Shown piece after piece: positions 9,431 to 10,627 of a stretch of 64,000 nucleotides of DNA. Both the position numbers and the translations under genes were made by a program. The notes beneath the pieces were generated by a model, which was given only the letters and a program-made list of their open reading frames with translations, was not told the origin of the DNA and searched no databases. Numbering within the stretch: position 1 is the first letter of the stretch; each line of letters starts with the position of its first letter. The stretch lies in the NCBI RefSeq assembly GCF_003019035.1, contig NZ_CP027447.1; one strand, 5' to 3'. The stretch is from Escherichia coli (GTDB lineage Bacteria; Pseudomonadota; Gammaproteobacteria; Enterobacterales; Enterobacteriaceae).

Positions 9431-9885
9431 AAAATTATTTGGCCCCAAATAATTTTGGGTGAAAACCAATCAATAAACCACTTATCAATAGGTAAGTACC
9501 GGAAATTTTTCCGGTAGAATATTTTCAGGCGATTGCCTATTAATAAATACATTATTGATAGATAACTACCTTCTGTGATTTGCCCGCAAATCACAGAAGA
9601 TGAAAAACTATCAATACGTGATATTTTCACGGAAATACCAATTAATACTCCAGAATATCTCCTGACCATATACTCTGAAGCCTGTAAGAACTGCATCAGA
9701 TATTCAGAGACCAGATGGATATAAGTCTGAACTTATTTGGTTTCCAATAAGTTCAGGCGAAAACCTATCAATTCATCTGTTTTCAACAGGCAGCCACCTT
9801 CCATGATTAACATGTTAATCATGGAAGGTGAAAAGCTATCAATAATCGATATTCCCACGGAATTACCAATTAATACATCCCAAAA
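9431..9885. repeat. Palindrome-dense repeat block: two ~228-bp tandem units each carrying a different perfect palindrome, plus further palindromes sharing a TATCAATA motif
   Basis: Perfect palindromes at 9431..9456 (12-bp arms), 9497..9516 (9), 9570..9599 (14), 9795..9830 (17), all with 2-bp centres; conserved 52-bp segments 9601..9652 and 9829..9882. Confidence 0.6.
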
Positions 9886-10627
9886 AAACGCGCCATAAAA
9901 TACCGGATAATCTGCTATCTGCGCCAGCATCCCGCCGCTCTACCTGTTCAGGACTGCGCCAGTTTCTGGCCCTTTGATTTTTGGCCCTTTCCGGTCAGGC
10001 GCTGTTACTCTTATTGCCCCCTTAACCCTTATGACCCTTTCCCTTTCTGGCGCAACCAGTTCATTCGGAAATGAGCCATGACAGTCTGCACCAGATTGTA
10101 TTTTCACCACCGGATAACGATCACAGAGTGCAAAAAATAACATGAAGCACCGAAGATTCTTAATTTATATGAAGCAGGTTATTATGCCAAAAATCGTCGC
10201 AGCATTTTTATAAAATAATGAGACATTCTGTGATTATACAATATATATCACAGGATGCAGAAAAATACAGAGAGAATTATTCAGATATAATTCTGCGTCA
10301 GAATTAATGTGATGCTCCGGTGAATTGAAATTTTAAAATTTCCCGACCCTGTAATGTCGATAAAAACGATTAAAACACCTGTTATCAATAGGTCGCGCTT
10401 CGAGTGATTACAGGGGTAATCACCATAATACCCCGGCAAACCTGCACTAATAAAGCAGGAAATTCTGGTCTGTTGATATTTATTCATCATTCAATAACAA
10501 TTTATTCACCATATTATTACGCAGTAACGACCGGTATCCGGTTGTTTTATTTCATCCGCTCCCTGCGCAAGACTGATCGCTGTCGTTACACAGTAACCGC
10601 ATTATTTTGCGCCATTCATGATATCCG

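Follow-up and report, generated by a model that had tools for sequence, protein, structure and literature searches.

The 64-kb window examined here (the whole 64,000-nucleotide stretch of Escherichia coli DNA that was analysed, from contig NZ_CP027447.1) contains a 10.7-kb island at a tRNA-Asn gene, bounded by 16-bp repeats at 7873–7888 and 18588–18603. In order, the island holds a P4-type tyrosine integrase gene, a spacer, a relaxase-like gene convergent with the integrase gene, a Ner/SfsB-like gene, a 153-aa gene and Rhs cargo. The spacer (9313–10627; 1,315 bp) is AT-rich and non-coding, and it carries an array of perfect palindromes, four of them directly followed by a short conserved sequence box, that is the subject of this analysis. 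The haplotype is that of E. coli SCU-301 (NZ_CP051751.1; 100% identity), in which both genes are intact and the att repeats perfect; at ≥99% identity it is unique among 5,426 E. coli genomes. The features that frame the spacer are as follows.

7873–7888, + strand: attL core, the final 16 bp of tRNA-Asn (gene 7813–7888), recurring at attR
8050–9312, + strand: P4-type tyrosine integrase gene, intact, with an arm-binding domain (NCBIfam PRK09692, E = 3e-70); the longest open reading frame (ORF) begins at 7948
9343–9376, bidirectional: intrinsic terminator of the integrase gene (A-run, GC-containing stem, T-run)
10628–11584, − strand: relaxase-like gene, 318 aa (294 aa from the RefSeq start at 11512)
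18588–18603, + strand: attR, the 16-bp direct repeat of the tRNA-Asn 3′ end and the far boundary of the island

The 318-aa protein had been called a second recombinase in a preliminary description of this stretch. It matches Pfam PF12835 (Integrase_1; E = 1.1e-59) and PF12834 (Phage_int_SAM_2; E = 1.8e-40), both at full length, and five active-site-like residues (R147, H241, R244, H275 and Y287) are invariant across 12 homologues. PF12835 serves as a signature of MpsA-like atypical relaxases (PMC10484663), and MOB_M relaxases are reported to be the commonest in chromosomes, to adjoin an integrase in 96% of cases and often to be annotated as integrases themselves (preprint bioRxiv 10.64898/2026.01.13.699239). 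By its two domains, the protein belongs to the MpsA/MOB_M family of atypical relaxases, with relaxase activity putative, and its gene is chromosomal and adjacent to the P4-type integrase gene inside the att-bounded island, a setting of integration and mobilization rather than one of two site-specific recombinases. Because the PF12835/PF12834 family corresponds to the MOB_M relaxases of the literature, we read the island as an integrative mobilizable element, on the basis of family assignment and literature rather than direct comparison with MpsA.

The integrase–spacer–relaxase arrangement is found in 520–594 of the 5,426 E. coli genomes, at tRNA-Asn and tRNA-Asp genes and also at a tRNA-Thr site without an annotated integrase, and recurs in many Enterobacterales genera. 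Cargo differs among the related islands, which carry Rhs, type VI secretion, phosphotransferase system (PTS), dnd or Kiwa genes. In most E. coli copies inspected (L003, L004, L005, L210, L211, L213, L215 and others), at least one of the integrase and relaxase-like genes is annotated as a pseudogene.

Nine palindromes with arms of at least 8 bp lie in the spacer, against a mean of 0.28 expected from first-order Markov simulations of the same sequence (300 runs, maximum of 2 in any run). When arms of at least 9 bp are considered, five of the 12 palindromes in the whole window fall in 9431–9830, and folding of 9420–9900 as single-stranded DNA gives a z-score of −10.8. All five palindromes named in the preliminary description are where it had placed them; two further palindromes (9727–9756 and 10327–10342) and an imperfect inverted repeat (10224–10257) had been missed.

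9431–9456: palindrome, arms 12 bp, centre 2 nt
9497–9516: palindrome, arms 9 bp, centre 2 nt
9570–9599: palindrome, arms 14 bp, centre 2 nt
9727–9756: palindrome, arms 11 bp, loop 8 nt
9795–9830: 36-bp palindrome, best described as arms of 18 bp with no centre
10224–10257: imperfect inverted repeat, with a half-site as in module 2 below: TTCTGTGAT / ATCACAGGA
10327–10342: palindrome, arms 8 bp, no centre
10404–10423: palindrome, arms 8 bp, centre 4 nt: GTGATTAC AGGG GTAATCAC

The 9795–9830 palindrome had been given 17-bp arms around an AT centre; its coordinates hold, and the longer arms without a centre describe it better. Similarly, the two 228-bp tandem units reported earlier are real but diverged, with 9518–9648 and 9746–9876 being 72% identical at a distance of 228 bp, and Tandem Repeats Finder does not call them. 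A second register relates 9428–9492 to 9726–9790, 298 bp apart and again 72% identical. The large palindromes of the two units, 9570–9599 and 9795–9830, had been described as completely different, but the outer 11 bp (CTTCYGTGATT) are common to both, and the differences lie in the 3 innermost bp of each arm and in the centre. Among other strains, MRY15-117 is without one whole 300-bp unit and 95-3192 is without the first palindrome.

We saw no credible coding sequence in the spacer, in agreement with the preliminary description. RefSeq places a 65-aa hypothetical protein at 9733–9930 on the − strand, spanning the 36-bp palindrome, and this is the only spacer feature among the best 30 E. coli matches listed; in two other strains a different, 99-aa gene is called at the same position. 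Both calls are probably spurious. A small protein or type I toxin was considered and rejected: a 21-codon ORF follows 9570–9599, but the corresponding frame of unit 2 stops after 5 codons, and the differences between the two units show no codon pattern.

The repeated unit, or module, consists of a perfect inner palindrome of 20–36 bp followed by a 15-nt box, GAAAACCTATCAATA. The motif TATCAATA, noted earlier as recurring beside most palindromes, does recur there, but is part of this longer box, which lies directly 3′ of four palindromes. At ≤1 mismatch the box has four copies in the window (starts 9461, 9602, 9759 and 9830), all on the + strand, confined to 9461–9844, and each directly 3′ of a perfect palindrome. 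Four complete modules and one or two degenerate ones are present, all in one orientation.

9431–9475, + strand: module 1, palindrome 9431–9456, then box GAAAACCAATCAATA at 9461–9475
9553–9616, + strand: module 2, inverted box copy TATTGATAGA at 9553–9562, palindrome 9570–9599, box GAAAAACTATCAATA at 9602–9616
9727–9773, + strand: module 3, palindrome 9727–9756, then box GAAAACCTATCAATT at 9759–9773
9795–9844, + strand: module 4, the 36-bp palindrome 9795–9830, then box GAAAAGCTATCAATA at 9830–9844
10362–10423, + strand: degenerate fifth module, AAAAACGATTAAAAC...TTATCAATAGG, then palindrome 10404–10423

A-rich spacers on the + strand flank the palindrome on both sides (...AAAG... and ...GAAAA), which gives the module a polarity. 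Of 33 modules, 18 have an inverted copy of the box core (TATTRATMGG) 4–10 bp before the palindrome when at least 8 of 10 positions are required to match, compared with 1.7% of shuffles.

The association of box and palindrome extends to other genera. In a comparison set of 78 loci (860 kb, both strands, box at ≤2 mismatches), we found 16 box matches, of which 14 are no more than ~1 kb downstream of the relaxase gene. Each of these 14 reads in the integrase sense and follows a perfect palindrome with arms of 6–17 bp. Long palindromes are enriched in the same place, with 31 of the 91 having arms of at least 11 bp in the 860 kb falling in the 1 kb that directly follows the relaxase gene. Counted over every island locus, a palindrome with arms of at least 8 bp is present in 30 of 40 distinct modules, while in a control only one of 122 chance occurrences of the box has one. 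The control boxes came from a metagenome scan for GAAAACCNATCAATA, which yielded only chance matches in unrelated contigs and was reused for this purpose. Across the 5,426 E. coli genomes, those with any match have 1–4 matching places, and every locus inspected is at or beside tRNA-linked islands.

Two roles for the box were considered and rejected. As an arm-type site of the P4-type integrase it would be expected beside the att sites, where the repeats are GGTGGTC-like and no box is present; as a site for IHF it fails because, by eye, only a few boxes fit WATCAANNNNTTR. The GGTGGTC-like direct repeats at 7990–8030 (by attL) and 18520–18545 (by attR) are themselves candidate arm-type sites of the integrase.

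The stems fall into at least four mutually unrelated families (AAAATTATT..., ACAAAAAATTTT..., AAAAAATTTCTAC/GTAG... and CTTCYGTGATT...), and in the AAAATTATT family the spacing between half-sites is 7 or 8 bp. Comparison between E. coli strains and related species gave the following changes on both sides of a stem.

9795–9830: G:C to A:T, via a G.T intermediate
9795–9830: centre AT to GC
9795–9830: C:G to T:A
9727–9756: A:T to C:G
9431–9456: TGG/CCA to CAC/GTG
10224–10257: T:A to C:G, via a T.G intermediate

The earlier observation that self-complementarity is kept while stems change therefore stands, both between paralogous modules and between orthologues. It had been taken as the signature of selection on a hairpin, and here hairpin-templated mutation offers another source. 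Mutagenesis of quasi-palindromes by hairpin-templated strand switching is established, and three signs show that it also acts on these palindromes. The centre is 0–2 nt in 18 of the 32 palindrome-bearing modules, so the symmetry spans bases unable to pair in a hairpin. Centres are flipped between orthologues (CA against TG, C against G). Lastly, 9497–9516 and 10327–10342 are perfect in the window haplotype only; 9497–9516, which has one or two mismatches in other E. coli copies, needs two simultaneous changes and was probably made perfect by a template switch. Because these signs are present, covariation at this locus is no proof of selection on a hairpin.

Conservation provides a separate line of evidence. 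Across five genera, identity is 94.1% in the inner arms, 82.4% in the rest of the spacer and 80% in the palindrome centres, and among 13 E. coli haplotypes the arms are 94.8% identical, compared with 88.0% for the rest of the spacer. The arms of 9570–9599 and 10404–10423 are 100% conserved in every E. coli haplotype that carries each. Where the integrase gene and the relaxase gene are both intact, as in two E. coli copies, 4/4 and 3/4 palindromes are perfect, and copies with a pseudogene mostly retain no more than two. This association of palindrome perfection with intact genes is suggestive, given a small sample without phylogenetic control.

Taking these observations together, we tentatively propose that the modules are accessory DNA hairpin or cruciform signals of the DNA-processing machinery of the island, a putative function that we regard as possible rather than probable. 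The modules would work at the DNA level, as accessory cis elements folding into hairpins or cruciforms, with the inner stem supplying structure and the boxes supplying sequence recognition by a protein. They would come into use when the excised island is handled as DNA, most likely as the single-stranded + strand in conjugative mobilization; the + strand would be the one transferred if the origin of transfer (oriT) is placed as in SGI1, upstream of the relaxase gene. Priming of the complementary strand, recognition by the tyrosine-recombinase-fold enzymes of the island and protection of the strand are possible uses. Two forces may keep the palindromes perfect: active copies would be under purifying selection, and mismatches would be corrected on the hairpin template by template switching. 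In favour of this proposal, structure appears to matter above sequence, given the four or more unrelated stem families, the 7–8 bp spacing and the both-sided changes, and the arms are constrained relative to the rest of the spacer, across genera and within E. coli.

Several observations weigh against such a signal. The modules follow the clade of the integrase and not that of the relaxase: where they are present, the integrase is at least 83% identical to that of the window and the relaxase 65% to 100%, and where they are absent, the integrase is 57–60% identical. They are dispensable, being missing from related islands with minimal spacers of 180–300 bp, in which the integrase terminator and the conserved core block (described below) are kept. 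Uncompensated mismatches or indels occur in many E. coli copies, mostly in those with an integrase or relaxase pseudogene; the preliminary description had named decay of this kind as evidence against a maintained hairpin, and it is found alongside the both-sided changes. Exact-centre symmetry and flipped centres are expected from mutation alone. The characterised MOB_M oriT sits in the first intergenic region upstream of the relaxase gene, where EFASI is found here, and the modules lie downstream of the 3′ end of that gene. That the + strand would be the transferred one is reasoned from other conjugative systems. Mismatches in the outer box pair show no G.T bias on the + strand (4 G.T, 9 A.C and 19 others), so the outer repeat is probably not a stem. 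A single-stranded form is further limited by the poor pairing of the outer boxes and the lack of wobble bias, and the one-step intermediates of the inner stem, although all three are G.T on the + strand, are too few for significance (p = 0.125).

The strongest alternative, which we consider unlikely but with a substantial chance of being correct, is that the palindromes have no function. Duplicated quasi-palindromes of an AT-rich spacer would be kept perfect, while drifting, by hairpin-templated strand switching, and the box would be conserved only through the common ancestry of the duplicated units. Such self-perpetuation accounts for the exact-centre symmetry, which hairpin stability alone could not select, for the flipped centres, and for the two palindromes that are perfect solely in the window haplotype, one of them through two simultaneous changes. 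Frequent uncompensated decay and the absence of modules from many related islands, with units lost through repeat-mediated deletion, fit it equally well. However, unbiased templated correction should leave the rate of divergence unchanged, and yet across the five genera the arms diverge ~3 times more slowly than the spacer. Against this alternative, too, two of the E. coli palindromes are invariant, perfect palindromes are commoner in copies with intact genes, and in intact islands of other genera every box has a perfect palindrome and the polarity is single throughout. As a comparison, template switching or hairpin-associated small inversion explains the exact centres, the simultaneous multi-base perfecting and the flipped centres, but it is a mutational mechanism rather than a function, and alone does not predict slower divergence of the arms.

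Somewhat less likely again, in our judgement, are hairpins that act at the RNA level in integrase-sense transcripts, arising by read-through of the terminator or from a weak promoter in the spacer. The helices of about two turns would then be RNase III processing or retroregulation signals, or 3′ stabilisers of the integrase message, resembling lambda sib or the early processing sites of T7. The integrase-sense polarity of the modules, their tracking of the integrase clade, the three G.T intermediates and a promoter-like site at 9382–9411 (+ strand; 10/12 consensus positions) are consistent with this. On the other hand, a strong terminator (9343–9376) stands ahead of the array, the promoter-like site does not keep its spacing in other E. 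coli copies or in other genera, and promoter-like sites are no more numerous in the region than in shuffles. Pairing at the exact centre is useless for RNA, the outer-stem mismatches show no G.U bias, the three intermediates are too few to test (p = 0.125), and no Rfam family matches. Tandem structured small RNAs, one of the roles first suggested, are unlikely: the alignments show no conserved promoter, and the hairpins lack a following U-tract. Promoters on the − strand with TTGATA as the −35 element were considered too, and rejected: there is no consistent −10 element, and the count of promoter-like sites does not exceed that of shuffles.

An array of double-stranded operators, in which dimeric proteins (the Ner/SfsB-like protein or a host regulator) bind the palindromes, appears improbable. 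It would explain why a GTGATT-N8-AATCAC family keeps constant spacing in three palindromic copies (9570–9599, 9795–9830 and 10404–10423), two of which are 100% conserved in E. coli, and why its half-sites recur at 10120, 10226 and 10247. But at least four unrelated stem families would demand as many regulators, and the half-site spacing of 7 or 8 bp in the AAAATTATT family argues against rigid dimeric operators. In addition, the centres vary and remain symmetric, for which a dimer touching the outer half-sites alone would not select, and such motifs are absent from the likely promoter region of the island operon (13100–13720).

It is a little less probable still that the modules form a new class of structure-defined, sequence-free DNA sites, analogous to integron attC or the folded attP of CTX phage. 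As part of the same proposal, the single-stranded or cruciform DNA would be recognised by the MOB_M relaxase or by the P4-type integrase, enzymes of tyrosine-recombinase fold other than IntI. If this were true, tRNA-linked mobilizable islands would gain a hairpin-based system for docking, nicking or cassette exchange.

Two further explanations are very unlikely. One is a replication origin of the excised island, with iterons (GGCCCTTT and CTGCRCCAG) beside easily unwound AT-rich DNA: these repeats do adjoin DNA of 31–36% GC, and SGI1 carries an iteron origin (bioRxiv 10.1101/2021.06.18.448947), but no gene in the RefSeq annotation of the island is a replication initiator, the 153-aa protein has no family match, plasmid and phage homology is limited to a single 79-bp match in the core block, and the palindromes are dispensable and lie outside the conserved block. 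The origin-like region suggested in the preliminary description is unlikely on the same ground, as no annotated island gene is an initiator. The other, that the modules are attC-like folded sites cut by a tyrosine-recombinase-fold enzyme, the spacer being a cassette-like or docking array, draws on an architecture like that of attC, in which a variable inner stem lies between unpaired spacers and conserved, inverted outer boxes and the site has a strand polarity, and on a Salmonella relative with cargo genes between the relaxase gene and the core block, but the modules have no likeness to the attC consensus when compared by eye, the integrase is P4-type and not IntI, the units are without ORFs, the outer boxes pair poorly, and homologous or microhomology deletion accounts for the unit losses.

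Searches for known families were largely negative. An Rfam scan of the whole window at gathering thresholds returned nothing in 9313–10627, and at E values up to 10 the best hits in 9000–11000 were eukaryotic microRNA and small nucleolar RNA models far below their thresholds; the Rfam scan called for earlier thus finds no family for the palindrome array. With 9380–10140 as query, BLAST matched plasmids over a single 79-bp stretch of the core block and gave no phage match, and no Rfam, plasmid or phage match covers the modules. We also compared the modules with common repeat types, and the earlier statement that they are not a terminator array, REP/ERIC or CRISPR agrees with what we found. The hairpins are followed on the + strand by GAAAAC, with no U-tract, and 9343–9376 is the sole convincing terminator, the other hits of a terminator scan having weak tails. 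Dispersed repeats of the REP/BIME/ERIC kind do not fit a box confined in the window to 9461–9844, and as to CRISPR, Tandem Repeats Finder gives no array, and the units agree at 72% of positions and carry different hairpins. In E. coli NRG 857C, an IS200C element is inserted just past the integrase stop (L208 2710–3168), upstream of the terminator and modules, and the adjoining IS200 end yields an Rfam STnc490 match (L208 3178–3301).

Among characterised systems, the closest setting is the oriT of SGI1-like elements, where stem-loops are conserved in structure and not in sequence (bioRxiv 10.1101/2021.06.18.448947). That oriT, like the spacer, is a non-coding cis region beside a PF12835-type relaxase gene and, like the modules, contains several inverted repeats or stem-loops whose structure is kept while sequence varies. 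The SGI1 oriT is, however, a single GC-rich 125-bp element with imperfect repeats upstream of mpsA, whereas the modules are AT-rich, perfect, repeated 4–6 times, downstream of the gene and dispensable. The STAXI and EFASI motifs of Rfam are likewise orphan structured motifs around the same ‘integrase’ genes, and STAXI is present in a Klebsiella relative and possibly acts as single-stranded DNA. Unlike the modules, these two have defined covariance models, which the modules do not match at E values up to 10, and they lie upstream of the relaxase gene.

Integron attC sites share with the modules structure-defined hairpins, outer inverted boxes, unpaired spacers, variable stems, strand polarity and an arrayed position beside a tyrosine recombinase. 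Their R″/R′ consensus is RYYYAAC / GTTRRRY, and the boxes here are TATTRATMGG / CCKATYAATA, with a PRK09692 integrase and units lacking ORFs; the modules have no such consensus, IntI or gene cassettes, and their outer boxes pair poorly. The sso and ssi elements of rolling-circle and mobilizable plasmids are non-coding accessory elements, specific to one strand and rich in hairpins, in which short unpaired motifs are conserved. They resemble the modules, by description only, in combining structure with short conserved motifs; they are usually single and imperfect, unlike arrays of perfect palindromes, and we know of no sequence similarity between the two. The modules are not described in the cited MOB_M and SGI1 literature, no literature search aimed at the box or palindromes having been made, and are best placed, as a variant, with the known kind of structured cis-acting DNA on mobilizable elements.

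The spacer and the region upstream of the relaxase gene contain two further conserved elements.

9952–10058: core block conserved across genera, C-rich on the + strand, with GGCCCTTT repeats and an invariant stretch TTTCCGGTCAGGCGCTGTTAC
11569–11697, − strand: EFASI RNA motif (Rfam RF02957; 97.4 bits against a gathering score of 51.2)

The core block is flanked by CTGCGCCAG on the left and CTGGCGCA on the right. The tggcccttt repeats of the preliminary description are present, but belong to this cross-genus block, and 37 distinct sequences, drawn from many genera, retain it with its GGCCCTTT repeats. Apart from the terminator, it is the only element that minimal spacers of 180–270 bp retain. 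In one Salmonella island (L085, core block ~11990–12080), a methyltransferase/DUF87 gene cluster separates the relaxase gene from the core block, with Kiwa genes beyond; given this cargo, the interval may be a hotspot for cargo insertion.

The 9-mer CTGCRCCAG occurs 13 times in the window, compared with 0.99 expected, and 10 of the 13 copies lie between 9919 and 12247. They are on the + strand from 9919 to 11562 and on the − strand from 11845 to 12247, spaced by ~27–29 bp within arrays, so that orientation flips between 11570 and 11845, across the EFASI element. The 9-mer is enriched in related loci too, and may be bound by the relaxase or an accessory protein. A text search of the supplementary files of the SGI1 oriT paper did not find it. 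The window haplotype is without a 70-bp segment that follows 9907 in other E. coli copies (L002–L006) and holds two more copies of the 9-mer.

EFASI lies directly upstream of the relaxase-like gene, outside the palindrome array, and was also found in all eight related loci scanned. Upstream of the gene, a stretch of ~390 bp without an ORF is conserved across genera, and a multi-helix fold there shows both-sided changes at 11 of 30 pairs. The region upstream of mpsA in SGI1 contains both oriT and a small RNA that is essential (bioRxiv 10.1101/2021.06.18.448947). By analogy with that position, the primary oriT is more likely to be upstream of the relaxase gene, in the region that holds EFASI and the 9-mer arrays, than in the palindromic spacer. 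If the ‘integrase’ neighbours of EFASI are MOB_M-type relaxases, EFASI might be the counterpart of the SGI1 sgm-sRNA or of its oriT region.

MOB_M islands were recently reported as the commonest relaxase-bearing chromosomal elements (preprint bioRxiv 10.64898/2026.01.13.699239), and only in SGI1, pIGRK and pCW3 has their cis-acting DNA been characterised. The modules, core block, CTGCRCCAG arrays and EFASI make this region a compact set of candidate cis elements, on islands whose cargo includes Rhs toxins, type VI secretion genes and defence systems against phages. If the modules act on folded DNA, structure-based site recognition would extend past integrons and Xer-dependent phages. If they are instead neutral, they would be an unusually clean natural case of palindromes maintained by template switching, and a warning against taking compensatory change in DNA palindromes as proof of selection.

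Elsewhere on the island, a C4-type antisense RNA (RF01695) lies at 13177–13264 on the − strand, upstream of the 153-aa gene, and in several related loci isrK and the c4 target motif stand beside it. This suggests an RNA switch like that of phage P1 immI, which may control an operon of the 153-aa, Ner-like and relaxase genes; the 153-aa protein itself has no family match in Pfam, PHROGs or NCBIfam. Beyond the island, the window contains three further tRNA-Asn genes, at 33015–33090 (− strand), 34839–34914 (+ strand) and 37247–37322 (+ strand), and in other E. coli strains islands of the same family sit in tRNA-Asn genes of this chromosomal cluster.

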